Shown here: positions 1-37,164 of the stretch, piece after piece
Position numbering within the stretch: position 1 is the stretch's first letter
Layout: each line of letters starts with the position of its first letter
Virus record (IMG/VR): IMGVR_UViG_2541047856_000006
Reading direction: 5' to 3' (one strand)
Source of the DNA: a virus
Lineage: Duplodnaviria > Heunggongvirae > Uroviricota > Caudoviricetes
Length of the DNA: 37,164 nucleotides
Made by a program: the position numbers and the translations under genes
Notes under the pieces: generated by a model
Database searches by the model: none
Seen by the model: only the letters and a program-made list of their open reading frames with translations
What the model was told of the DNA's origin: nothing

Positions 1-61
1 GGTATCCGTTCTGCTGAAGTGTCATGGCGTTGATTTTACGGTGACTCTTCGACAGTGAAAA

Positions 62-83
62 GAAAAAAGGCCGCAGAGCGGCC
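62..83 (-). terminator. Putative rho-independent terminator ending the leftward C-int-cargo operon
   Basis: Plus-strand aaaaaa followed by GGCCGC-agag-CGGCC (69..83); on the minus strand this is a GC stem followed by a T-run, just downstream of the ORF ending at 209. Confidence 0.55.
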
Positions 84-4727: not shown

Positions 4728-7549
4728 GTGAGTTTGCATGGAGCTGGAATGAACCACGGCCAGCCATTGATCCGGCCAGATTTACGGAGCGCAGGCAGGA
4801 AACTGAAACCGACCTGCAACGCGCCATCCGTTACTACCTTGAGGCGGACAAAAGGGCACAGGAAGAACAGGAAGCGAAGGAAGAAGCCTTTTTCGCACAA
4901 TCCTCCATGGGTAAAAAACTCATGGCATCCCTTGAGGAAGCCGGACAGCGTGAAAAGCTGGCACAGAGCATCATCAGTAAGCGCCGGGCAACAGAACAAG
5001 ACCCGGTAGCCCGTGCCTTTGCCACACTAAAGGCACTACCTGTTTATCTGCGTGAACCACTGAGCCGCCACCTCTCTTTCCTGCGCAAAAAACAGGAAGC
5101 CGATCGCCAGAAAGGCAAAAAGAGCTGGCAGGCGGAACGCTATGCACGCGGAACCCTGCGCAAAATATTCGAACGTCTGGATCGCACTGACGGACGCTGG
5201 CTGACACCGGGTTATCGCTCCCTTGCCGGGCGCGAACGCCTGGACGATTTGCTTTACCTGCCGCAGCTCAACAAGCACCAGATACAGACGCTGGCCACCA
5301 TGACCGCGGCGATGTTCAGCAGCACCTTCGAAACACTCTGCGATGGCTTTGGTGCCAGAGATGGCGAGCTGACCATGGATGTAATGTTGAAGGCTTACCG
5401 GATGCTGGCTCGTATCGCATTACGCCTGCACATCATGCCGCCACATTACGAAGCCCTGAACAAGAGCGAACCGGATACGGAACTGCTGCCGGGCGCAATC
5501 CTTCGCCTGACCTGTGCGGACTGGTGGAAACGCAAACTGTGGCTGTTACGTTGTGAGTGGAGAGAAGAACAACTCCGCGCCGCCTGTCTGGTTTCCAGAA
5601 AAACATCACCCTATCTGAGCCAGGACGCGTTAAGCGAGTTTCGCGCACAGCGCGAGAAAACCCGCGACTTCCTGAAGAGCTTCGAACTGGAAAACGAAGA
5701 CGGCTTCACGATTGATCTCGAGACAGTGTATTACGCGGGAGTAAGTAACCCGGTTCACCGTAAGGCAGAAATGATGGCCACCATGAAGGGACTGGAACTT
5801 CTGGCCGAAGCCCGTGGCGACAAAGCGGTGTTTCTGACTGTCACCTGCCCGTCAAAATACCACGCCACAACAGAGAACGGTCATCCGAATCCCAAATGGA
5901 ACGGGGCCACCATGCGCGACTCCAGCGATTACCTGGTTAACACCTTTTTTGCGGCGGTCCGCAAAAAACTGAACCGCGACGGCCTGCGCTGGTATGGCAT
6001 CCGCACGGTGGAGCCTCACCATGACGGCACCGTGCACTGGCATATGATGGTCTTTGCTCATCCGGAAGAAATCGACAGCATCGTGGCCATCACCCGCGAT
6101 ATTGCCATTCAGGAAGACCGCCACGAGCTGGGCAATGATATTACTCCGCGCTTTAAGGTGGAGTACGTCGACGGCTCCAAAGGCACGCCAACCAGCTACA
6201 TCGCCACCTACATCGGAAAAAACCTGGACAGCCGCGCCGTGGATGGAATCGATCCGAAAACGGGCAAACCACGCGTTGACCACGAAACCGGAAAATCAAT
6301 GGCCGAGAGCGTGGAGCGCGCCATCGGCTGGGCGCGCCTTCATCGGGTCCGCCAGTTCCAGTTCTTTGGCATCCCCTCCCGTCAGGTGTGGCGTGAACTG
6401 CGCCGCCTTGCCAGCCAGATGGCACGCAACCCGGAAGGCCCGCAACGGCTGAAGGATGACGCAATGGATGCGGTACTCGCTGCCGCCGATGCCGGGTGTT
6501 TTGCCACCTACATTGAAAAACAGGGCGGCGTACTTGTTCCACGCAAAGACTACCTGATTCGCACTGCCTACGACCTCGCAGATGAGCTGAACGATTACGG
6601 CGAACAGAGCGTACAGATTTACGGGATCTGGTCACCACTCATCGGGGAATCCTCCCGTGTGTGCACGCATCCGGATAACTGGAAGCTGGTAAGACGTAAA
6701 CCGGAAGCGGAAGACAGCGCCCGCGAAAATGGTTTTGACCTTCAGGGCGGCCCAGCCGCCCCTTGGACTCGTGGCAATAACTGTCCCCGTGTACAGGAAA
6801 CGAACAACAACGGGACAGAACAGCCGGAAGAACGGCCAGCACCGTGGCCGCAGCTCCCTGACGGCGTTGAAGTGAATGAATGGATGCGCTCACTGAAACG
6901 GCACGAACGCCGGGCGCTGATGCGTTCGCTGCGTGACAAACAGGCAAAAAACAGCAGTGATGAAATGCAGAGCTGGACACAGAGCCGCAAACAGCAGCGG
7001 CCTTTGCCTGATAACCACGAATTACTCGCTAAAGAATGGCGGGAGTCTGCTGAATCTCTCGGCCTGCATATCGGTGAACAGCAGATGCAGCACCTGTTAC
7101 GGGGCGGCAGTCTGTACGTTGACGGCAGCATCATTGCACCGCAGGGATTTGAAATTGTACGCAAACCGGATACCCGACCGGACAGCCGGATCACGCAGCT
7201 CTGGCAGCGCCTGAGCCGTAACCACGGCGTAAGCAGCACGGAGATCCGCCATAACCCGGTCGTCAGCTACCTGGAACAGCTGGGGGCATCAGACCCCGAA
7301 GCCGCCGCACGCCTGGCATTCACACTTCAGCAGGACCAGAACACCATGAAAACACCCGTTACCGTGCTTTCTGACATGCTGCGCGCCATCCGCGACGCAG
7401 AGCACGCACAGAGAATCAGTGAAACCACTGAACGCGCCCGCCGCAAAGCAGACCTGCTGCGGGGTGGCCTGACCAGTGGAAACAAAAAACAGACAGAAAC
7501 GGGATTCACAAATCCCGTAAATGAGCAAAAAACGCGCCGCGATATATGA
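4724..7549 (+). CDS. A: Rolling-circle replication endonuclease (P2 gpA family)
   Basis: HUH-type motif HDGTVHWHMMVFA and paired tyrosines YIATYIGK. The ATG at 4724 overlaps the upstream stop. The C-terminal region is longer than the ~760 aa remembered for P2 A. Confidence 0.93.
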   Translation: MSEFAWSWNEPRPAIDPARFTERRQETETDLQRAIRYYLEADKRAQEEQEAKEEAFFAQSSMGKKLMASLEEAGQREKLAQSIISKRRATEQDPVARAFATLKALPVYLREPLSRHLSFLRKKQEADRQKGKKSWQAERYARGTLRKIFERLDRTDGRWLTPGYRSLAGRERLDDLLYLPQLNKHQIQTLATMTAAMFSSTFETLCDGFGARDGELTMDVMLKAYRMLARIALRLHIMPPHYEALNKSEPDTELLPGAILRLTCADWWKRKLWLLRCEWREEQLRAACLVSRKTSPYLSQDALSEFRAQREKTRDFLKSFELENEDGFTIDLETVYYAGVSNPVHRKAEMMATMKGLELLAEARGDKAVFLTVTCPSKYHATTENGHPNPKWNGATMRDSSDYLVNTFFAAVRKKLNRDGLRWYGIRTVEPHHDGTVHWHMMVFAHPEEIDSIVAITRDIAIQEDRHELGNDITPRFKVEYVDGSKGTPTSYIATYIGKNLDSRAVDGIDPKTGKPRVDHETGKSMAESVERAIGWARLHRVRQFQFFGIPSRQVWRELRRLASQMARNPEGPQRLKDDAMDAVLAAADAGCFATYIEKQGGVLVPRKDYLIRTAYDLADELNDYGEQSVQIYGIWSPLIGESSRVCTHPDNWKLVRRKPEAEDSARENGFDLQGGPAAPWTRGNNCPRVQETNNNGTEQPEERPAPWPQLPDGVEVNEWMRSLKRHERRALMRSLRDKQAKNSSDEMQSWTQSRKQQRPLPDNHELLAKEWRESAESLGLHIGEQQMQHLLRGGSLYVDGSIIAPQGFEIVRKPDTRPDSRITQLWQRLSRNHGVSSTEIRHNPVVSYLEQLGASDPEAAARLAFTLQQDQNTMKTPVTVLSDMLRAIRDAEHAQRISETTERARRKADLLRGGLTSGNKKQTETGFTNPVNEQKTRRDI
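7496..7521. promoter_or_regulatory. Palindromic element 1 (ACGGGATT-caca-AATCCCGT)
   Basis: 8-bp perfect inverted repeat at 7499..7518 with AAA flanks, inside the 3' end of A. A near-identical copy lies 73 bp downstream. Confidence 0.5.
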
Positions 7550-7568
7550 AGCGCGCATAAAACAGGCA

Positions 7569-7594
7569 AAAACGGGATTTCAGAATCCCGTAAA
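7569..7594. promoter_or_regulatory. Palindromic element 2 (ACGGGATT-tcag-AATCCCGT), putative ParR-binding centromere/operator
   Basis: Same 8-bp stem at 7572..7591, ~35 bp upstream of parM. The pair flanks an AT-rich GATATAT segment. Confidence 0.5.
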
Positions 7595-7625
7595 CGATTA
7601 ATTAATCAACATAAGGAAAAGCGAC

Positions 7626-8585
7626 ATGAAAATTTGTATCGATGACGGCTCCACCAACATCAAGCTGGCATGGACTGAGAACGGCGAACGCCGCAACGCC
7701 ATCAGCCCGAACAGCTTCAAGTCGGAATGGTCTGCGCCGTTCGGTGGCACGCAGCCCGCGAACTACATGCTTGATGGCGTGCGCTATGGTTTTGATCCGG
7801 TCAGCGATCGCTTTGTCCAGACGACCGACACGCAATACCAGTACAGCGATGTGAATGTCATTGCCATTCATCACGCGCTGGTCAAATCAGGCATCACACC
7901 ACAGGAAGTGGATGTGGTTGTCACCCTGCCACTGAGCGAGTATTTCGACACAAACGCACAGCCGGACATGGCCAACATCAACCGCAAAAAAGCAAACGTC
8001 ATGCGCCCGGTGGCGTACCAGAACGGAAAAGCATTCACTATCCGTAACGTACGGGTTATGCCTGAATCCATTCCGGCTGGTTTTAAAGCACTGGCTGACA
8101 TGAGTCCGTTTGAATCCCTGCTGATTGTGGATTTAGGCGGAACCACGCTGGATGTGGCAAAGGTTCAGGGGCAACTGGCAGGTATCAGCCAGGTGTTTTG
8201 CGATCCACACGTAGGCGTTTCTCTGATGGCCAATGCCGTACTGTCGGTGATGGCCACTAACGGTATGCGCACCAGTCACCACATCGCCAATACCATTATC
8301 GAACATCGCCATGATGAAGCCTGGCTGCGCCAGCACATCCACAATGACGCGCATTACGCCAGCCTGATGGCGGTTATTCGTGAAAAGGAAGAAACACTGA
8401 AACAACGCGTGATCCGCGCGCTGGCGGGTTTTTCGGGTTACGGGCGGGTGATGGTTGTCGGTGGCGGGGCGGAGATTGTGGCACCCGCTATCCGCGAAGC
8501 CTGCGGAGTTAATGCGACTTTCATCGCGGACGGGGTGCCACAGTTTGCTCTGGTTAATGGGCTGTACGCAATGGACAAGGAGTAA
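7626..8585 (+). CDS. parM: Actin-like segregation ATPase ParM/StbA
   Basis: N-terminus MKICIDDGSTNIKLAW...ISPNSFKSEW...YSDVNVIAIHHALVKSGI closely matches the remembered plasmid R1 ParM; DLGGTT and VVGGGA phosphate-binding motifs present. Confidence 0.88.
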   Translation: MKICIDDGSTNIKLAWTENGERRNAISPNSFKSEWSAPFGGTQPANYMLDGVRYGFDPVSDRFVQTTDTQYQYSDVNVIAIHHALVKSGITPQEVDVVVTLPLSEYFDTNAQPDMANINRKKANVMRPVAYQNGKAFTIRNVRVMPESIPAGFKALADMSPFESLLIVDLGGTTLDVAKVQGQLAGISQVFCDPHVGVSLMANAVLSVMATNGMRTSHHIANTIIEHRHDEAWLRQHIHNDAHYASLMAVIREKEETLKQRVIRALAGFSGYGRVMVVGGGAEIVAPAIREACGVNATFIADGVPQFALVNGLYAMDKE

Positions 8586-8589
8586 ACCA

Positions 8590-8901
8590 ATGACGACACC
8601 AACCAGACGGATAAGTTTCTATCTGAAGCCCGCCGCCGTCAAGAACGAAGGCGAAGCATGCGCATGGCTGGACAGCCTTACACCAGAAGCCCGCAAAAGC
8701 GGCCAACGCGTGGCTTTTCTGGCCGGGCTGGCACTTCTGAAAATGAATCCGGCAGAGGCTTACCGACTGGCTGCATGGGCTGACGATGAGACGTTATCAG
8801 TGACACAAACCAGGACAGAACGCCCCGAGTCACAGCCAGTACCAACCGCACAGATAACCAGTCAGATGGCCGGAAATATCAGGGCGTTATTTCCTGAATA
8901 A
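8590..8901 (+). CDS. parR: ParR/StbB-like centromere-binding adaptor
   Basis: 103 aa directly after parM; MTTPTRRISFYLKP...AFLAGLALLK resembles the remembered R1 ParR N-terminal ribbon-helix-helix region. Confidence 0.65.
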   Translation: MTTPTRRISFYLKPAAVKNEGEACAWLDSLTPEARKSGQRVAFLAGLALLKMNPAEAYRLAAWADDETLSVTQTRTERPESQPVPTAQITSQMAGNIRALFPE

Positions 8902-8964
8902 CACAACATCAGGGCGAGTTCGCCCTGCTCTCCACCTCAGAACATAAACAAGGAGAACGACATA

Positions 8965-9489
8965 ATGAGCGAAATCAACTATCAGGCATTACGTGAGGCA
9001 GCACAAAACTATCAATCGACGCTGGCGTGGTATGAGGCCATCGCGGATAACCCAAATGCTGAGCAGGATTGTAACGAAGCAGTGGCGGCGTTTAAGCGTC
9101 AAATCCGTCATCAGGAAATGGACATTATCGCCGAGCTGCTGGAAGAACTGGAAACCAAAGACAACAGGATCGCTGAACTGGAAAAAATCGCCACTGACCA
9201 TGCACTTAAATTCCAGAAAGCACAGGACGCATTAAAGCATACCGCTTTGCTGCATAGCCGGACGGCGCAACAAACAAATAATTTTGCAGTATCGCTTCCG
9301 GACATAAGCGAATATTTCATTAATGACGTATTTCAGCCCTTGCGATACGAGCGGGATGTTGAAAGAGCCATCATAAAGGCTGGCGGAAAAGCATTGTGGC
9401 AGGAGAAACACGAGGACAGAACGCATCAGTCCTGCGATGTAAATTGTGGATGGTTTAGCCCACTGACGACAGATAAAAATAACACCTGA
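8965..9489 (+). CDS. Hypothetical coiled-coil protein
   Basis: 174 aa; good spacing from an upstream AAGGAGA; central predicted coiled coil (ELLEELETKDNRIAELEKIATDHALKFQKAQDALKH). Confidence 0.55.
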   Translation: MSEINYQALREAAQNYQSTLAWYEAIADNPNAEQDCNEAVAAFKRQIRHQEMDIIAELLEELETKDNRIAELEKIATDHALKFQKAQDALKHTALLHSRTAQQTNNFAVSLPDISEYFINDVFQPLRYERDVERAIIKAGGKALWQEKHEDRTHQSCDVNCGWFSPLTTDKNNT

Positions 9490-23425: not shown

Positions 23426-23959
23426 ATGATGCACTTAAAAAATATTACTGCTGGCAACCCTAAAACAAAAGAGCAATACCAGCTAACAAAGCAATTTAAC
23501 ATCAAATGGCTTTATTCAGATGATGGAAAAAACTGGTATGAGGAACAAAAGAATTTCCAGCCAGACACTTTGAAAATGGTCTATGACCATAACGGCGTTA
23601 TTATTTGTATTGAAAAGGATGTTTCAGCAATTAATCCGGAAGGCGCAAGCGTCGTTGAATTACCTGATATTACAGCAAATCGCCGGGCTGATATTTCGGG
23701 TAAATGGATGTTCAAAGATGGCGTAGTGATAAAGCGAACTTATACCGAGGAGGAACAGAGGCAGCAGGCAGAGAATGAAAAGCAAAGCCTGTTGCAACTT
23801 GTCAGGGATAAAACCCAGCTATGGGACTCACAGCTACGGCTGGGTATCATTTCCGACGAGAATAAACAAAAATTAACCGAGTGGATGCTCTATGCGCAGA
23901 AGGTCGAATCCACAGACACCTCCAGCCTGCCAGTAACGTTTCCAGAACAACCAGAATGA
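23426..23959 (+). CDS. G: Tail fibre assembly chaperone (gpG-like), expressed orientation
   Basis: 177 aa directly after H; paralogous to the minus-strand ORF at 23988..24515 (shared ...[12 protein letters not shown]...DITANRRAD...GKWMFKDG...). Confidence 0.8.
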   Translation: MMHLKNITAGNPKTKEQYQLTKQFNIKWLYSDDGKNWYEEQKNFQPDTLKMVYDHNGVIICIEKDVSAINPEGASVVELPDITANRRADISGKWMFKDGVVIKRTYTEEEQRQQAENEKQSLLQLVRDKTQLWDSQLRLGIISDENKQKLTEWMLYAQKVESTDTSSLPVTFPEQPE

Positions 23960-23987
23960 AACAAGGCCCGCTATCGGGCCTTAATTT

Positions 23988-24515
23988 TTATTCAGGCTTT
24001 TGTGGCCATTCAGGATTTGCCGTATCCACACGGCTGACCAGAACACTGTAGCGTTCCCATGACTCCAATCGTGTGCGTTCCTCTTCCGTCGCCATATTCA
24101 GCCTGACAGCGCGTTCCAGTGGCTGAATAACGTTTTCTGCTTCGGAAAGTAACGCAGCCTTTTGTGATTCGGCCTGTTGTTGTTGCTCGTCTGCCGTATA
24201 AATCCGTTTAACCACAGCTCCGTCCTTAAACATCCACTTACCGGAATCATCAGCACGACGATTAGCTGTAATATCAGGAACCTCAACGACGCTATAACCT
24301 TCAGGGTTAAGCGTGGAGGCATCTTTGGTGATGGCGACAATAATATTATTTGCATCGTAAACAATCTTTATTGTGTCTGGCTGAAAGTTTTTCACTTCCT
24401 CATACCAGTTTTTTCCGTCTTCGGACCATAACCAGATAACATCAAAATTCTTTGTTAGCTGATATTGTTCTTTTGTTTTTGGATTTCCAGACTTAATATT
24501 TTTTAAATGCTGCAT
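23988..24515 (-). CDS. Alternative tail fibre assembly chaperone (G')
   Basis: 175 aa paralogue of G in inverted orientation, within the invertible segment. Confidence 0.8.
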
Positions 24516-24518
24516 AAA

Positions 24519-25511
24519 TTACACCTGTGCGACGTTATACCATGTGCCATTGATGTATTTTTGTATTGGTCTGAATACTGCCGGATCATCGCCATCAACT
24601 TCACCGACAATGCCAAGCCCCGTAATTGCATGACCTGATTTCTCATACATCACGCCTTTTTGCATAGTCTGAACAACACGTGTGCCAAGTCGGACATCTC
24701 TCACATAACGTGAGTCAAAATTACCATAATTGCCGGGAATAACTTGCGCACCGCAAAGCCAGTTCCCGTTATTATCCATGTACGCCTGACCATCGGTGCC
24801 ATTGGCTGTCCTTGAGTTATTAATCATGTAGATGCCAAATTGCTTGTTCCCCAGTCCACCTATCATGAACTTTCGGTCGGCGTGATTCTGGCGAAGTAAC
24901 GCCTGAGCGCTATCAGTGTTAACTATATTTTTCCCAAAGATAGCGTTGTTATCGCGCATCTGAATCCACATACCATTACTGCTGTTAATAGCAAAACGGT
25001 CTGAAAGTGTCTCCCCTGAAACATTAAGGCCACGCCCCATCGAAACAGCGCCAGTAGCGTTATTAATCCATAATGGCCTTAATCCGTTATAAGTCCCCAT
25101 GTTGTCACCGGAGTTTGTCAACATGAAGTATGTATTTGAACCATCATTACGAATAAAGAATCCGTAATTACCATAAGCAATACGTAGGCCGTTTGCTGAT
25201 TTTGATATGACTTCGCCATTTACAATGGCATTGACAAGAACATACAAAGCATCCCATTTAAGATTCATCAGGTCTTTTGTTGTGGTGCTTTGTTTGCTTC
25301 TCCATTTGAAATATTCATTGCCGTTGTCGCCTGTTTCAAACCACATGTATGAATCAGTGTCACCATCGGCATCATTTTTAAATCCAATCTTCGCCCAGTC
25401 AGTATTTCGAATCCAGGCAAGGATTGAGTCATTTTCAAAAGTAAGCCCACCGGACAAGGTATCGCCATTTTTTTGCACGGCGTTACCAGCTCTGTTTACC
25501 GTTTCCTGCAA
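24519..25511 (-). CDS. Alternative tail-fibre C-terminal variable segment (promoterless H' cassette)
   Basis: Begins inside the right crossover site with MQETVN..., the same residues (LQETVN) found at the crossover point within H. It would fuse to the constant part of H after inversion. Confidence 0.8.
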   Translation of the reverse strand: MQETVNRAGNAVQKNGDTLSGGLTFENDSILAWIRNTDWAKIGFKNDADGDTDSYMWFETGDNGNEYFKWRSKQSTTTKDLMNLKWDALYVLVNAIVNGEVISKSANGLRIAYGNYGFFIRNDGSNTYFMLTNSGDNMGTYNGLRPLWINNATGAVSMGRGLNVSGETLSDRFAINSSNGMWIQMRDNNAIFGKNIVNTDSAQALLRQNHADRKFMIGGLGNKQFGIYMINNSRTANGTDGQAYMDNNGNWLCGAQVIPGNYGNFDSRYVRDVRLGTRVVQTMQKGVMYEKSGHAITGLGIVGEVDGDDPAVFRPIQKYINGTWYNVAQV

Positions 25512-25528
25512 ACCGAGGTTTTAGATAA
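25503..25528. other. Invertase crossover site (gix/hix-like), right
   Basis: TTCCTGCAAACCGAGGTTTTAGATAA, the inverted counterpart of 22453..22478, immediately upstream of the invertase gene. Confidence 0.85.
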
Positions 25529-25582
25529 TGGCCGTTTCTGACCTGCATGGCATGATTTACGCTTTTGGACGGGAGATTCAGC

Positions 25583-26170
25583 GTGCTGATTGGCTATGTA
25601 AGGGTATCAACAAATGACCAGAATACAGACCTGCAACGAAACGTTCTTGTTTGTGCAGGATGTGAACAAATATTTGAAGATAAATTAAGCGGGACAAAGA
25701 CAGACCGACCGGGATTAAAACGCGCTTTAAAGCGCCTTCAAAAAGGTGACACGCTGGTTGTCTGGAAACTGGATCGCCTCGGGCGAAGCATGAAACATCT
25801 GATTTCTCTCGTCGGGGAACTACGGGAGCGAGGGATTAATTTTCGCAGTCTGACCGACAGCATAGATACATCTTCTCCAATGGGGCGTTTTTTCTTCCAC
25901 GTGATGGGTGCCCTGGCTGAAATGGAACGTGAATTAATTGTTGAACGTACACTGGCCGGACTGGCAGCAGCGCGCGCACGGGGGCGCACAGGCGGACGTC
26001 GCCCGAAGCTGACAAAAGAACAGCATGAGCAAATAGCAAGGCTGATTAAAAACGGTCACGACAGAAAACAACTGGCAATAATTTACGGCATTGGTACATC
26101 GACGATTTATCGTTACCACCCCGCAGGAGAATCAAGCGGAACAATAGAGAAGAGTCAGAAAACAAAATAA
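25583..26170 (+). CDS. Serine-recombinase DNA invertase (Hin/Gin/Cin family)
   Basis: MLIGYVRVSTNDQNTDLQRN...LVVWKLDRLGRS...GRFFFHVMGALAEMERELI... with a C-terminal helix-turn-helix. Start taken at the GTG at 25583 (ORF frame begins at 25565). Confidence 0.93.
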   Translation: MLIGYVRVSTNDQNTDLQRNVLVCAGCEQIFEDKLSGTKTDRPGLKRALKRLQKGDTLVVWKLDRLGRSMKHLISLVGELRERGINFRSLTDSIDTSSPMGRFFFHVMGALAEMERELIVERTLAGLAAARARGRTGGRRPKLTKEQHEQIARLIKNGHDRKQLAIIYGIGTSTIYRYHPAGESSGTIEKSQKTK

Positions 26171-33258: not shown

Positions 33259-36057
33259 CTAAATCTCAGCAATCTTTTTTTTACTGTGCTGTTCTATTAT
33301 CCACTCTGCTTCCGCTTGGTATTCATGAGCTAACTCTCGAAGAATTCGGGCAAATCGATGAAAGCCTAGAAGTTCCATTGCATCAGACTTAGTATGATAT
33401 TGTTGGGCCAACTCCAATTCCGGTTTACCTTCAGGGTCAACAATGTAGACACCACGCGAATTTATTACCGCATTCTTATAACCAGTACGCACTTTATCAA
33501 GTTCACGTCTATTCAAAAACTCGGCCAGTTCTGGAAGTATCCAATGCTCGTCATTTGCAGGGCTAAAAATTAATATGCTTCCAATTCTATGATAAGCAAA
33601 ATCTAAATGGCCTGACTTTTCGCATTCTGTTTGAACAAAATCAAACCAGTTATTAAACGCATTGGCATCAAACTTGCCTTCAGCATCAACACCCGGAATC
33701 TTTTTCCAATCATCAAGTAAATAGCGTGAGTTTTTGGCAATATTTATTTCACTTTCAGATAGTTCTTTACTTGCTTTTTGAAATTCTGATCGATACGCAT
33801 ATTGAATGACTTCACAAAAAAAACTGGGTTCACTTGCTAGTTTTTTCTCTAATACTTGAGGATGCAACGAATCATTGGCTCCCCTGTTAATTACAGGCAG
33901 GTATGCCCATTCAATCTTTACTAAGTCGTCATCTGAAACAGTGTTATCATTTTGAATATAATTCACAAGTTCATTAAATGAGTGAATATCAAACCGCTCA
34001 ATATTTTCTGTGGTTCTAATTGATTGCAATAGAGCAAGCACAACCTTGCTGCTATCAACTAAATTATCGATATGTAAAATTCGAGATAAACAATCTATTG
34101 CCATCAAGGGACGGTCTACTTTAATCAAGCAATCTACAGCAAAATAAATTTCTTCCGTTGAATCACAGCAGTATGCATTAACATGGGTATTTTTCCAATA
34201 CTCGAAAGGAAAATCATCAAATGAAGCGTTTAATGCATCCCACGTTTCTTTTTTAAACGGTAACAAAAGAAAAAAAGCAATCTTTTCTTGAGCACTCCAG
34301 TCATTAATAACTGCCAACACCCATGATTTTCCTTCTCTGTAGTTCTTAGCCTGTACATAACCAGAAGCAAGAGAATTTTCCTTTTTAATATCACTAACAA
34401 TAAGTTTTTTCAGTATATCTAAAGGGATTTCTAGATCTTCTGCGACCAGACTACTACCAACAAACTCAGGTCTTTCAATAGAAAGAGAGAATTCTAAGAC
34501 TCCGTCAATACCATTAACAGTATATATTTCGTATATTGATTGCCCTCGTTCTTTTGTCAACCTTTCTTCTTGGTCCCGCCAGTTTCCATTTTCATCAAAT
34601 AGGAAGTAACTATTTTGTGCAAAAAGTCGTTTGCTATAAAGCATAGGATTTTCGGGCTTCAAGACTGTAGAAACATCTTTGATTTTTTCATTCTGTTCTG
34701 GTTGTATTGCCCAATAAGCACCTGAGAATCTTTTGTTTTTGTTATAAACTTCTAAACATTTTTCCCACACCGCCAACTTCAATTCAGCACTATCTGTTTT
34801 TTTAGAAAAATCATACAATAATTTAATTGCATCATCGAATTTAAATGGCGCTAAACTACCAATATTTTCAACTAAATCAACAAGTCTTAATGATGATTTA
34901 CTTGCCAATTCAATTGTTAATTGAGTGTATCTTTCAATCTGAGTACGACACTCATCATCCGATGGCCTTTTATTAAAACCGTTAGGAATAAAGTTTCTAA
35001 AAGTTGGAATATGTGTGCCAGATGTTACTTGCGTGTTGTTGGGTAACAACTGAACTAAAACACGCCATGCTGTATCGGGCCACTCCCTTGCCAATGCTTT
35101 GAAAGCAGCAATACGTCTATCTATATCAGCTGTAGTATGAGGAAGCCATGGTAACAATATGTTGATTATCGAGTTAAGTGGCCTGTTAGCCCAATTGCCA
35201 CCAGGATCATGGCTATCCAGCTCCCCTAATATTACTAAAGAGCGAGATAAATAGTTAGGCGCCCAAGCTAATCCTTCAATAGCCCATAGCAGTCCTGTCA
35301 TATAATTCCGACCTGAAATTCCACCGATACCTTCCTGTGCAAAAAGTGAATCAAATGGCTTGTCTTGGTGAGATGCAGCATTTTCCACTTCGTCGATAAA
35401 ACAGTCAGGAGCACTTTCCGCAAGCATAACTTGAATATCTTGCGTACTAGCCCATAATTGCCAGCTAGAAGCCGAAAAAACCTCTTTAACCACACTTGAG
35501 GCGCAATATTGCCCTTTATATTTTGAGCAATTAGTAAGTAACTCTTGCTTTGTTGCAACTAATGCCAACCCTTCGGATAGTCCTTTCCTTATTAATCGGC
35601 TATGTGGTAAAACCTTCCCATAAATTACTGCTGCATAACGCTCTTCAGGTGCCAGTTCAAATTGTGGGTCGATTGTTTTAAAAACGGATACAACAGTCGT
35701 CCGAAACAAATCCAAATGATCATCGAATAATCTTGACGATACCGTTTGAAATGTTTGTATTCTATCTTTAAAACTCCAAGAACCTCTCTCATGAATCAAA
35801 GGACTATCTTGCATCCCTTCAATTATTCTTATTTTTCGAATCCAACTGTCATATGACTCGCCAATAAGGCTTGTAATTATATTAATATCACCATTATTTT
35901 TTTCATCCCAGCAACCGACTAAAACAGCAATCGCTAACTCAGTCGCATAATCAACATTATCAATATTGTATATAGTTAAGTTACCAGCAACATTATGGCC
36001 TGTTCCGGCATGATTTTGACTAACTGAACTGCAGCTATGAATGTTATCCATAGACAC
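33259..36057 (-). CDS. Large hypothetical protein (932 aa) in an AT-rich island; function unknown
   Basis: Long uninterrupted ORF, AT-rich and clearly different in composition from the flanking phage genes. No Walker A, helicase or recognisable nuclease motif was seen by eye. GTG/ATG start coupled to the stop of the upstream small gene. Confidence 0.65.
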   Translation of the reverse strand: MSMDNIHSCSSVSQNHAGTGHNVAGNLTIYNIDNVDYATELAIAVLVGCWDEKNNGDINIITSLIGESYDSWIRKIRIIEGMQDSPLIHERGSWSFKDRIQTFQTVSSRLFDDHLDLFRTTVVSVFKTIDPQFELAPEERYAAVIYGKVLPHSRLIRKGLSEGLALVATKQELLTNCSKYKGQYCASSVVKEVFSASSWQLWASTQDIQVMLAESAPDCFIDEVENAASHQDKPFDSLFAQEGIGGISGRNYMTGLLWAIEGLAWAPNYLSRSLVILGELDSHDPGGNWANRPLNSIINILLPWLPHTTADIDRRIAAFKALAREWPDTAWRVLVQLLPNNTQVTSGTHIPTFRNFIPNGFNKRPSDDECRTQIERYTQLTIELASKSSLRLVDLVENIGSLAPFKFDDAIKLLYDFSKKTDSAELKLAVWEKCLEVYNKNKRFSGAYWAIQPEQNEKIKDVSTVLKPENPMLYSKRLFAQNSYFLFDENGNWRDQEERLTKERGQSIYEIYTVNGIDGVLEFSLSIERPEFVGSSLVAEDLEIPLDILKKLIVSDIKKENSLASGYVQAKNYREGKSWVLAVINDWSAQEKIAFFLLLPFKKETWDALNASFDDFPFEYWKNTHVNAYCCDSTEEIYFAVDCLIKVDRPLMAIDCLSRILHIDNLVDSSKVVLALLQSIRTTENIERFDIHSFNELVNYIQNDNTVSDDDLVKIEWAYLPVINRGANDSLHPQVLEKKLASEPSFFCEVIQYAYRSEFQKASKELSESEINIAKNSRYLLDDWKKIPGVDAEGKFDANAFNNWFDFVQTECEKSGHLDFAYHRIGSILIFSPANDEHWILPELAEFLNRRELDKVRTGYKNAVINSRGVYIVDPEGKPELELAQQYHTKSDAMELLGFHRFARILRELAHEYQAEAEWIIEQHSKKKIAEI

Positions 36058-36377
36058 TACCTCGTAATTTTATTTCCACCAATATTATCACCAGTGCCAC
36101 TATGGTTTTGAATAATGACAGTTGTTGCATGAGGTTTTATAGACGAGAGTATTTTTTGAATTTCACTACTATCCAATAGTTTTCTTTCAATTGCTATTTC
36201 ACTCATTTCATCGTTCAAAGACAGTTTTTCAAGTTCTTTAGCTAAAGCAGGGGCCACAGCCTCATCAACAACCCAATTTTTTAACTTTGCTTTTATTGAA
36301 GTTGCAGTAATCGAAACATGATGTTTGAGCATGTCATAAACTATGCCAGAAAGTATCGTCGAAGATAAAAAATCCAT
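36057..36377 (-). CDS. Small hypothetical protein (106 aa), first gene of the island operon
   Basis: Same strand and composition as the 932-aa gene; its C-terminus (IIQNHSGTGDNIGGN) echoes the N-terminus of the large protein (SQNHAGTGHNVAGN). Confidence 0.6.
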   Translation of the reverse strand: MDFLSSTILSGIVYDMLKHHVSITATSIKAKLKNWVVDEAVAPALAKELEKLSLNDEMSEIAIERKLLDSSEIQKILSSIKPHATTVIIQNHSGTGDNIGGNKITR

Positions 36378-36572: not shown

Positions 36573-36833
36573 ATGTTCCGTTGCCCGCTTTGTGGCGCAT
36601 CTGCCCGCATCCGTACCAGTCGTCCGGAAAATGATTCAAATACCGTGCGGCAAAAGTATTACCAGTGTAACAACTTGGAATGCGGCGTCTGCTTCTCAAC
36701 ACTGGAAGCTTTCCATAAGTTCACATCAAAACACGCCTCAAGTGTTCACTCTTCAGAGGGTATCCCGTGGCATGCTCTGCCTGCTTCACACAGGGGAAAC
36801 AGTCAGATGAGTTTGCCCTTACCTCAGGATTAA
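36573..36833 (+). CDS. ogr: Late-gene transcription activator, Ogr/Delta zinc-finger family
   Basis: MFRCPLCGASARIRTSR...YYQCNNLECG matches the remembered P2 Ogr Cys4 zinc finger (MFHCPLC...YHQCQNVNC); preceded by GGGAGG. Confidence 0.9.
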   Translation: MFRCPLCGASARIRTSRPENDSNTVRQKYYQCNNLECGVCFSTLEAFHKFTSKHASSVHSSEGIPWHALPASHRGNSQMSLPLPQD

Positions 36834-36893
36834 CAAGCAGAATTGCCGGAGTAACAAAAAAGCGATAGATTACGCGCGGGTGCCTTTCGGCTG

Positions 36894-37157
36894 ATGGTCG
36901 GAGGGAATACCCGAAGGCCAGATGTGGAAAGGCCCCGGAAAACATTTCTGTTTAACCGAGGCCCTAACCGCATTACCTTGACAAGTGAAAGGTTAGCGCC
37001 TCTCCGGAAAAGGAGCAAGTGCTATGTCGCAAAAATCGCTTACGGCCATCACGTTCTGCGTGACGGCAATCCTCATCATCTGGATGCTGCACGGTTCGCT
37101 GTGCGAAATACGGATGAGCTTCTGGGGAGCGGAGTTTGCGGCGTTCTTACAGTGTAA
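36894..37157 (+). CDS. Possible mok-like overlapping reading frame of the hok locus
   Basis: 87-aa ORF that fully overlaps the start of the hok-like gene in another frame, as mok does in hok/sok loci. Call rests on position only. Confidence 0.3.
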   Translation: MVGGNTRRPDVERPRKTFLFNRGPNRITLTSERLAPLRKRSKCYVAKIAYGHHVLRDGNPHHLDAARFAVRNTDELLGSGVCGVLTV

Positions 37158-37164
37158 GCAGTAA
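37024..37164 (+). CDS. hok: Hok/Gef-family type I toxin (small membrane peptide)
   Basis: 46 aa MSQKSLTAITFCVTAILIIWMLHGSLCEIRMSFWGAEFAAFLQCKQ: N-terminal transmembrane helix, then the SLCE(I/L) and E.AAFL.CK motifs of Hok-family toxins; AAAGGAG upstream. It ends at the window edge. Confidence 0.7.
   Translation: MSQKSLTAITFCVTAILIIWMLHGSLCEIRMSFWGAEFAAFLQCKQ

Follow-up and report, generated by a model that had tools for sequence, protein, structure and literature searches.

A probable hok/sok-type toxin–antitoxin cassette adjoining ogr in a P88-like Escherichia coli prophage

An intact hok/sok-type cassette occupies the final 320 bases of the 37,164-nt stretch of DNA analyzed here (hereafter, the window). 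Taken together, our analyses make it very probable that this is a type I toxin–antitoxin (TA) cassette of a P88-like prophage that acts by a mechanism like that of plasmid R1, with selfish maintenance as its likeliest benefit. The cassette appears to be a self-contained moron of ~440 bp with its own predicted promoter and terminator; similarity among cassette copies stops just past the terminator, as expected of a discrete cassette. The finding is correct but ordinary, in that the Hok annotation, the peptide, the enrichment of hok in prophages, and the occurrence of partition genes among P2-like phages had all been documented; novelty is confined to two points, namely that mok is not conserved and that the anatomy of the cassette is described in full. 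Our analysis adds the boundaries of the cassette, including the part that lies outside the window, its location inside the prophage, and a predicted Sok with its promoter.

The hok gene and its location in the prophage

The hok coding sequence (37024–37164, plus strand) begins with an ATG start codon and encodes a 46-aa peptide, MSQKSLTAITFCVTAILIIWMLHGSLCEIRMSFWGAEFAAFLQCKQ, with a single predicted N-terminal transmembrane segment. This ORF matched the Pfam profile HOK_GEF (PF01848) with 29.9 bits (E = 4e-7; curated gathering cut-off 22), with peptide residues 7–44 aligned to profile positions 5–42 of 42, and the peptide matched PHROG 251 with 80.6 bits; the gene also carries a Hok/Gef annotation in RefSeq. 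Immediately 5′ of the cassette lies ogr (36573–36833, plus strand), which encodes a late-gene activator with an Ogr/Delta zinc finger (Pfam Ogr_Delta, 52.4 bits). A reading of this DNA made from the letters alone (hereafter, the sequence-only reading) had proposed a Hok-family type I toxin locus adjoining ogr, and the profile matches agree with it. Its description of the peptide was also borne out: the N-terminus is hydrophobic (Kyte-Doolittle peak of 2.55 at residues 8–22, with a 15-residue window), the motifs SLCEIR and AAFLQCK are both present, and the window ends exactly at the hok stop codon. All seven residues conserved in the family (M1, C16, T18, L30, C31, E32, and E41, defined from a logo as present in >80% of 1264 Hok peptides) are found in the window Hok, as M1, C12, T14, L26, C27, E28, and E37. 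Scores against two NCBIfam models fell far under their cut-offs (34 bits versus 89 for the HokA equivalog NF007290; 21.6 bits versus 73 for the Hok subfamily NF007279). Because the scores for HokA and R1-type Hok are this low, the peptide is classified here not as HokA, but as a Hok of a separate subfamily, cluster 72.

The covariance match over the leader (E = 7e-10; described below) and a dN/dS of ~0.3 for hok across diverged copies indicate that the ORF at 37024–37164 is not there by chance; at least 85 of the 93 sampled loci of the 46-aa hok subfamily encode the same peptide. An identical 46-aa peptide is listed as construct LRP137 (72_1621) in Table S2 of Escalera-Maurer et al. (bioRxiv 10.1101/2025.08.07.668861), in which cluster 72 (72_1621 and 72_1589) is a high-abundance cluster whose member 72_1621 was cloned for toxicity assays. 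According to the available part of this preprint, 19_179, 60_1482, and 69_1540 were the only non-toxic constructs among 45, and 72_1621 is not one of them, which accords with the toxicity that the sequence-only reading had proposed to check by induction. The same part of the preprint deals with the coding sequence only, and no Sok, mok, mRNA elements, ogr adjacency, or ParMR link is described there.

Gene content and nucleotide identity identify the element as a P88-like (P2-family, Peduoviridae, Xuanwuvirus) E. coli prophage situated between btuC and ihfA. The annotation of a relative contains the P2-type genes int, C, A, portal, terminase, capsid, lysis, baseplate, tail, and D, then ogr, and the window is 92–98% identical to P88-like phages at the nucleotide level. 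Over positions 1–83, the window is the same as the btuC-ihfA intergenic sequence of K-12; beyond them the two diverge. A 25-bp attL core, AAAGAAAAAAGGCCGCAGAGCGGCC (59–83, plus strand), lies in this intergenic sequence and overlaps the terminator that follows ihfA. For the missing 3′ part, we used as the reference E. coli 19AR1724 (L001), with 99.7% identity to the window over its final 765 bases. In this genome, a second copy of the att core was found at L001 7029–7053, 264–288 bp past the window end, and is followed by a match to K-12 that continues into ihfA. The core is present twice in E. coli 19AR1724 (37.1 kb apart), once in the empty site of K-12, and once in the window, and a search of the window found no copy between ogr and hok. 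Because the att core flanks the prophage beyond hok and none separates ogr from hok, the repeats place hok as phage cargo, in a discrete cassette flanked by ogr and the right prophage end, and not in host DNA; the choice between phage and host, which the sequence-only reading had left undecided, is thereby settled in favor of the phage. Numerous IMG/VR contigs end precisely with the stop codon of hok; the edge of the window therefore represents a gene-call boundary rather than a biological one.

A host gene beside the attachment site could be argued from the distance between hok and ihfA, which is ~305 bp in all four E. coli genomes inspected. The location results refute this reading and leave it practically no probability: the empty site of K-12, a btuC-ihfA intergenic region of 100 bp, is without hok; the att core repeat separates hok from ihfA; no att copy lies between ogr and hok; and hok is found within phage genome records (e.g., P88), within a 34.4-kb circular phage copy, and in prophages of Salmonella, E. 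albertii, and Citrobacter with other flanks.

Phage P88 and other members of Xuanwuvirus share the gene order D-ogr-hok with the window, as well as the same ParM and ParR (95–98% nt identity), and in their records hok bears the annotation "MokW-like host killing" or "hok/gef family protein". P88 differs from the window in the 5′ tail of Sok, in the target loop, in the hok-to-attP/int region, and by a TAA in the mok frame where the window has TTG; the att core is absent from the P88 stretch examined, and the window, unlike P88, carries GapS6a and a partner between D and ogr. This slot between gene D and ogr is variable, containing GapS6a and a 932-aa partner in the window and SIR2 with an ATPase in strain C7, while the adjacent ogr-hok junction is constant; an ogr-type CPLCG motif was found no more than 700 nt upstream in 82 of the 93 loci of the 46-aa hok subfamily.

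The carrier prophage is very common, as the 765 bases with ogr and hok were matched at ≥80% coverage in 1111 of 5426 complete E. coli genomes. The cassette alone was also found adjoining lom in ~180 Stx phages (82% identity) and on plasmids of 52–118 kb (~89% identity). The extra 46-aa cassette by lom in Stx phages, which is the relative of the window locus (82% nt identity), is not the published hokW; this assignment was considered and rejected, as primer YO-357 shows that hokW encodes a peptide of 51 aa starting with MKQQKAM. A survey has reported that hok is enriched in prophages and that its role there is still to be studied; our literature search found nothing specific on hok in P2-like phages.

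Predicted hok mRNA leader, Sok, and promoters

The hok mRNA leader (36878–37023, plus strand; 146 nt) was delimited by an Rfam match, predicted folds, and alignment. Rfam family RF01794 matched 36878–37037 (plus strand) over the full length of the model, with 49.4 bits (E = 7e-10) and the gathering score of 59 not reached. Although RF01794 is named "sok", it models the sense-strand hok mRNA leader, as seen with the controls K-12 hokC (118 bits), K-12 hokB (110 bits), and an R1-type plasmid (87 bits, versus 49 bits for the window leader). The 46-aa hok subfamily as a whole scored 33–54 bits, and routine Rfam annotation would therefore miss its members. Within the leader, all on the plus strand, we identified a 5′ tac-like element, GGGTGCCTTTCGGCT (36878–36892), a ucb-like partner, GGAAAGGCCCC (36926–36936), a Sok-complementary stretch (36922–36982), a GAGG box (36958–36961), a predicted target hairpin (36958–37002), and the hok Shine-Dalgarno (SD) sequence AAGGAG (37010–37015). 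An alignment with R1 hok, hokB, hokC, and the Stx-phage copy showed that these loci share the −10 box, the 5′ GGGTGC start, the AGCCCCG and CGAGGC boxes, the AAGGAG Shine-Dalgarno sequence, the ATG, and a 3′ GGCACCC box.

The 3′ fold-back (fbi) element and the terminator lie beyond the window end and were read from the sequence of relatives. In the predicted fold of the full-length L001 mRNA, the 5′-terminal 15 nt are base-paired to ...GGUCGAUAAGGCACCC, located 50–67 nt past the stop codon (z = −6.8); a terminator follows the fold-back element. Pairing of the two ends is also the minimum-energy fold in all 29 distinct full-length relatives, each folded singly, which represent 12 different 5′/3′ sequence pairs with energies from −21.6 to −29.2 kcal/mol; the fold-back elements that the sequence-only reading had proposed to look for in the mRNA are thus predicted both in L001 and in each of these relatives. 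An RNAalifold consensus of eight sequences did not contain the tac-fbi pairing and returned an alternative tac-ucb stem instead, most pairs of which are invariant, so that covariation support for this stem is weak. When the RNA was truncated at its 3′ end, nt 1–11 were predicted to pair with GGAAAGGCCCC and nt 81–125 (36958–37002) to form a hairpin, as in the refolding of R1. Both the tac-fbi end-pairing and the tac-ucb refolding are predictions of these folding models.

A Sok-like antisense RNA of ~61–63 nt is predicted at 36920–36982 on the minus strand, with a single-stranded 5′ tail, GUCAAGGUAAUGCGGUUA, a long stem-loop, and the sequence CCUUUCC. In the alignment, the 5′ ends annotated for K-12 sokB and sokC coincide at 36982, and their 3′ ends at 36922, on the minus strand. 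The predicted fold (−30.2 kcal/mol; z = −4.7) has the shape of SokB and SokC, i.e., an unpaired 5′ tail with a single long stem-loop. Among 23 distinct variants, two classes of stem-loop sequence exist, with changes that compensate each other, and variability is highest in the 5′ tail, the recognition region of the RNA.

A putative hok promoter was identified at 36843–36871 (plus strand), with a −35 box TTGCCG (36843–36848), a 17-nt spacer, and a −10 box TAGATT (36866–36871); 8 of 12 consensus positions are matched, and the +1 is predicted at G 36878. The −10 box aligns with TATAAT of K-12 hokC and TAGGAT of hokB, both of which lie 6 nt ahead of GGGTG. The predicted sok promoter (36990–37018, minus strand) has a −35 box TTGCTC (37018–37013), a 17-nt spacer, and a −10 box TAACCT (36995–36990), the same geometry as that of the sokB promoter (TTGCCG-17-TAAGAT, 7 nt to the annotated 5′ end). 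The −10 box of sok is invariant and the −35 box TTGCTC is present in ~90 of 94 loci; the match to the consensus is weak (6/12). A strict sigma-70 scan of the cassette found no promoter for either hok or sok. The antisense promoter that the sequence-only reading had suggested looking for is therefore represented by a conserved pair of boxes, but not by a hit in the strict scan. We infer both promoters, which are proposed from their position relative to known loci, as well as the ends of Sok, the 3′ processing, and the biological role.

The mok-like frame, ParMR, and comparison with plasmid R1

An open frame that overlaps hok (36894–37157, plus strand; 87 codons) had been described as mok-like in the sequence-only reading; the frame is indeed open, but comparison among relatives suggests that its conservation as a gene is unlikely. 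At 36972, the window has an ATT where mokB, mokC, and R1 mok have their ATG. The nearest canonical start in the frame is a TTG at 36978, which is 16 nt from the GAGG box and has no SD at working distance; this codon is replaced by TAA in the P88, Stx-phage, and Salmonella copies. In 26 of 94 loci, the frame has no canonical start upstream of the hok ATG, and synonymous changes in hok give rise to stops in it. Among ORFs in the other two frames of the leader, none was conserved among relatives. In R1, mok is essential both for the translation of Hok and for its control by Sok. In the window, the Sok-complementary stretch stops 28 nt short of the hok SD; together with the lack of a conserved mok, this gap means that the coupling step of R1 is not simply transferable. 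Since mok is not conserved in the 46-aa subfamily, control of Hok by Sok in this subfamily is not explained by the R1 model.

In other respects, the cassette resembles the hok/sok system of R1 (parB locus). Both encode a small membrane toxin with conserved C, T, LCE, and E residues, both have a long structured leader (the two align element for element), the predicted promoters here have the geometry of those of R1, and in both the ends of the mRNA are predicted to pair (tac/fbi) and to refold on 3′ truncation; a cis-antisense RNA of ~60 nt with a single-stranded 5′ tail and a stem-loop, predicted here, occupies the same position. The window peptide differs from R1 Hok in its length (46 versus 52 aa; 30% identity), and the window cassette lacks a conserved mok frame and an ATG at the homologous site. 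In addition, the window cassette is phage-borne, whereas that of R1 is plasmid-borne. The hokW-sokW system of Stx2 prophage Sp5 (PMC8621323) is also prophage-borne and is a demonstrated working type I TA system; hokW, however, encodes a different Hok, of 51 aa and HokC/D-like.

The window also encodes a ParM/ParR pair, whose genes lie in the variable region flanked by gene A and the portal gene. ParM (parM, 7626–8585, plus strand) matched R1 ParM (PDB 1MWK; E = 1e-92) over residues 2–316 and contains the Pfam domains StbA_N and ParM_N; ParR (parR, 8590–8901, plus strand) matched Pfam Plasmid_stab_B with 87.5 bits, and sequence searches found no relative of ParR with a solved structure. Compared with ParMRC of R1, ParM is homologous over its full length, with roughly half of the residues identical in the alignment displayed, and ParR belongs to the same Pfam family. 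Just 5′ of parM (7483–7597, plus strand) are two 42-nt repeats containing the palindrome ACGGGATT-N4-AATCCCGT (7499–7518 and 7572–7591). These palindromes may be ParR sites, and the candidate centromere would then consist of two 20-bp palindromes 73 bp apart, unlike that of R1. The R1 centromere, parC, has ten 11-bp direct iterons. The window pair also differs from R1 ParMRC in belonging to an integrating phage and in being nearly always chromosomal (1453 of the 1455 places in which phage-type ParMR was found among complete E. coli genomes). The sequence-only reading had pointed to the co-occurrence of both R1-type stability loci, and ParMR does accompany ogr-hok in six of seven distinct P88-like phage records; this pairing characterizes a single phage lineage and does not represent an independent association. 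Rousset et al. 2022 (PMC9122126) described a putative partition system in ~1/4 of P2-like phages, in the same hotspot, and raised the question of plasmid maintenance.

Proposed mechanism, alternative roles, and significance

In the mechanism that we propose, a weak promoter would produce a stable hok mRNA of ~400 nt, the 5′ end of which (GGGUGCCUUUCGGCU) would be locked to the 3′ fold-back element, so that the mRNA would remain untranslated and the antisense RNA could not bind. Slow trimming at the 3′ end would allow the 5′ end to re-pair with GGAAAGGCCCC, forming the Sok target hairpin; the short-lived antisense RNA of ~62 nt (36982 to 36920, minus strand) would bind this trimmed form and block Hok synthesis. 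If the supply of Sok ended, the 46-aa Hok would be made, enter the inner membrane, and kill the cell. Loss of the element, shut-off of transcription by an infecting phage, or prophage induction could each cause such a shortage of Sok. The main benefit would most likely be selfish maintenance of the element, with abortive infection or assistance to lysis as possible side effects; each of these three roles would fit the data.

Among the alternative roles, abortive infection is a doubtful possibility; a lytic phage would stop host transcription, Sok would decay, and Hok would kill the cell before the invader matures. R1 hok/sok on a high-copy plasmid lowers the plating of T4, according to work cited in the available part of Takada et al. 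2021 (PMC8621323), and the cassette adjoins the variable D-ogr slot that carries defense genes. Across genomes, however, hok is not enriched near defense systems (12% versus 9.4% expected), PADLOC contained no model matching the peptide (or the GapS6a neighbor and the small ORFs near int), and the constancy of the ogr-hok junction points to a fixed part of the phage rather than to exchangeable defense cargo. There is a small chance that the cassette serves lysis, with Hok made on induction speeding lysis and phage release as for hokW-sokW of Sp5, in which sokW RNA disappeared after mitomycin C, HokW appeared in a RecA-dependent manner, and phage yield was halved without hokW-sokW (Takada et al. 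2021; PMC8621323). These functional data are not directly transferable, because hokW is a different, 51-aa Hok outside the 46-aa subfamily. An inactive remnant without present function, as several chromosomal hok loci of K-12 are, would fit the lack of a conserved mok, the weak promoter matches, and the Rfam score under the gathering score. Such decay is nevertheless very improbable given the identical peptide in at least 85 of 93 loci, the dN/dS of ~0.3, the conserved promoter boxes, the compensating changes in the Sok stem-loop, and an end-pairing kept in 29 of 29 distinct mRNAs despite sequence change; in addition, the identical peptide is not among the non-toxic constructs named in the available part of the preprint.

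It also seems unlikely that hok/sok and parMR form an R1-like stability kit that jointly keeps the phage genome as a low-copy plasmid, with ParMR segregating the copies and Hok killing cells that lose them. Both loci are true homologues of the R1 types and occur together in six of seven P88-like phage records, the presence of hok on plasmids correlates with partition systems, and the passage on plasmid maintenance in Rousset et al. 2022 (PMC9122126) counts in favor of this role, as does NZ_CP148288.1, a 34,461-bp circular "plasmid" that represents a whole P88-like genome with both loci. Against this, the element encodes an integrase, possesses att sites, and is integrated here; all but two of the 1455 places of phage-type ParMR are chromosomal, as are 311 of 311 places of the integrase type of NZ_CP148288.1. 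This lone circular record could represent a replicative form after excision. Co-occurrence in one lineage reflects shared descent and provides no evidence of functional coupling; moreover, Stx phages and phage 500465-2 have the hok cassette but no ParMR. A related proposal, that P88-like phages with parMR, a palindromic centromere, and a mok-less hok/sok are facultative phage-plasmids when integration fails or after excision, is similarly improbable.

Selfish maintenance by an R1-like mechanism is therefore the reading that we prefer. A lesser variant of the phage-plasmid proposal, likewise improbable, is that the 46-aa Hok subfamily is under Sok control without any mok leader peptide. If true, mok-less control by Sok would be a departure from the 30-year-old model of R1.

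Regions of the prophage outside the hok cassette

Replication gene A and the portal gene flank a P2 hotspot that usually contains anti-phage systems (Rousset et al. 2022, PMC9122126); in this P88-like prophage, the variable region is occupied by parM, parR, and an Ead/Ea22-like gene (7626–9489). Two 42-nt repeats located 73 bp apart (7483–7597), each containing the palindrome ACGGGATT-N4-AATCCCGT, extend from the end of gene A into the region upstream of parM, and represent candidate ParR sites; this arrangement of two palindromic repeats differs from the architecture of parC, the centromere of plasmid R1.

Another gene pair, on the minus strand, is flanked by tail gene D and ogr (33259–36377) and consists of a GapS6a-family gene (36057–36377), which scored 135.6 bits in NCBIfam and also matched Pfam HetE-N, and a partner encoding a 932-aa protein without any family match. 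In E. coli C7, the slot between D and ogr is occupied by genes encoding SIR2 and an ATP-binding protein, while Salmonella s1 and P88 present almost no gap between these two genes; the D–ogr interval appears to be a third variable defence slot of P2-like phages. Two minus-strand ORFs of 145 and 120 aa, located within 209–1005 between attL and the integrase gene, showed no convincing match in Pfam or PADLOC; the 145-aa product has the appearance of a coiled coil followed by a hydrophobic C-terminal tail.

The tail-fibre region (23426–26170) includes tail-fibre assembly genes in opposite orientations as well as a serine recombinase gene (25565–26170), a combination suggestive of a Cin/Gin-type invertible switch of host range. 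In E. coli 19AR1724, the annotation of the relative includes an adjacent partial tail-fibre gene.

Related hok loci in other assemblies

Near-identical hok loci were also found by genome contig matches in assemblies that bear the labels Planococcaceae, Vagococcus, and Xanthomonas pisi; short contigs are involved in at least two cases, Planococcaceae (4.2 kb) and Xanthomonas (857 bp). These three loci most likely represent enterobacterial contamination rather than true hosts. A prophage of Salmonella diarizonae (L014) presented a match to the Rfam sRNA family STnc540 (2809–2995 of that record; 185.7 bits), located on the strand opposite to hok and approximately 170 nt past its stop codon.

One circular record of 34,461 bp (NZ_CP148288.1) was deposited as a plasmid and represents, by content, a complete P88-like phage genome that includes int, ParMR, ogr, and hok, with a Com/DNA-methyltransferase pair located between hok and the int end. 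This record corresponds to an episomal state of the phage or, alternatively, to an excised replicative form.

Variability of the Sok tail

Among otherwise near-identical loci, the most variable part of the hok cassette is the 5′ tail of Sok, the predicted antisense RNA, together with its matching target loop (36965–36982). Among relatives, an identical Hok peptide is accompanied by at least eight Sok tail variants; such variability with a constant toxin is what one would expect if copies residing together were to escape cross-neutralisation.
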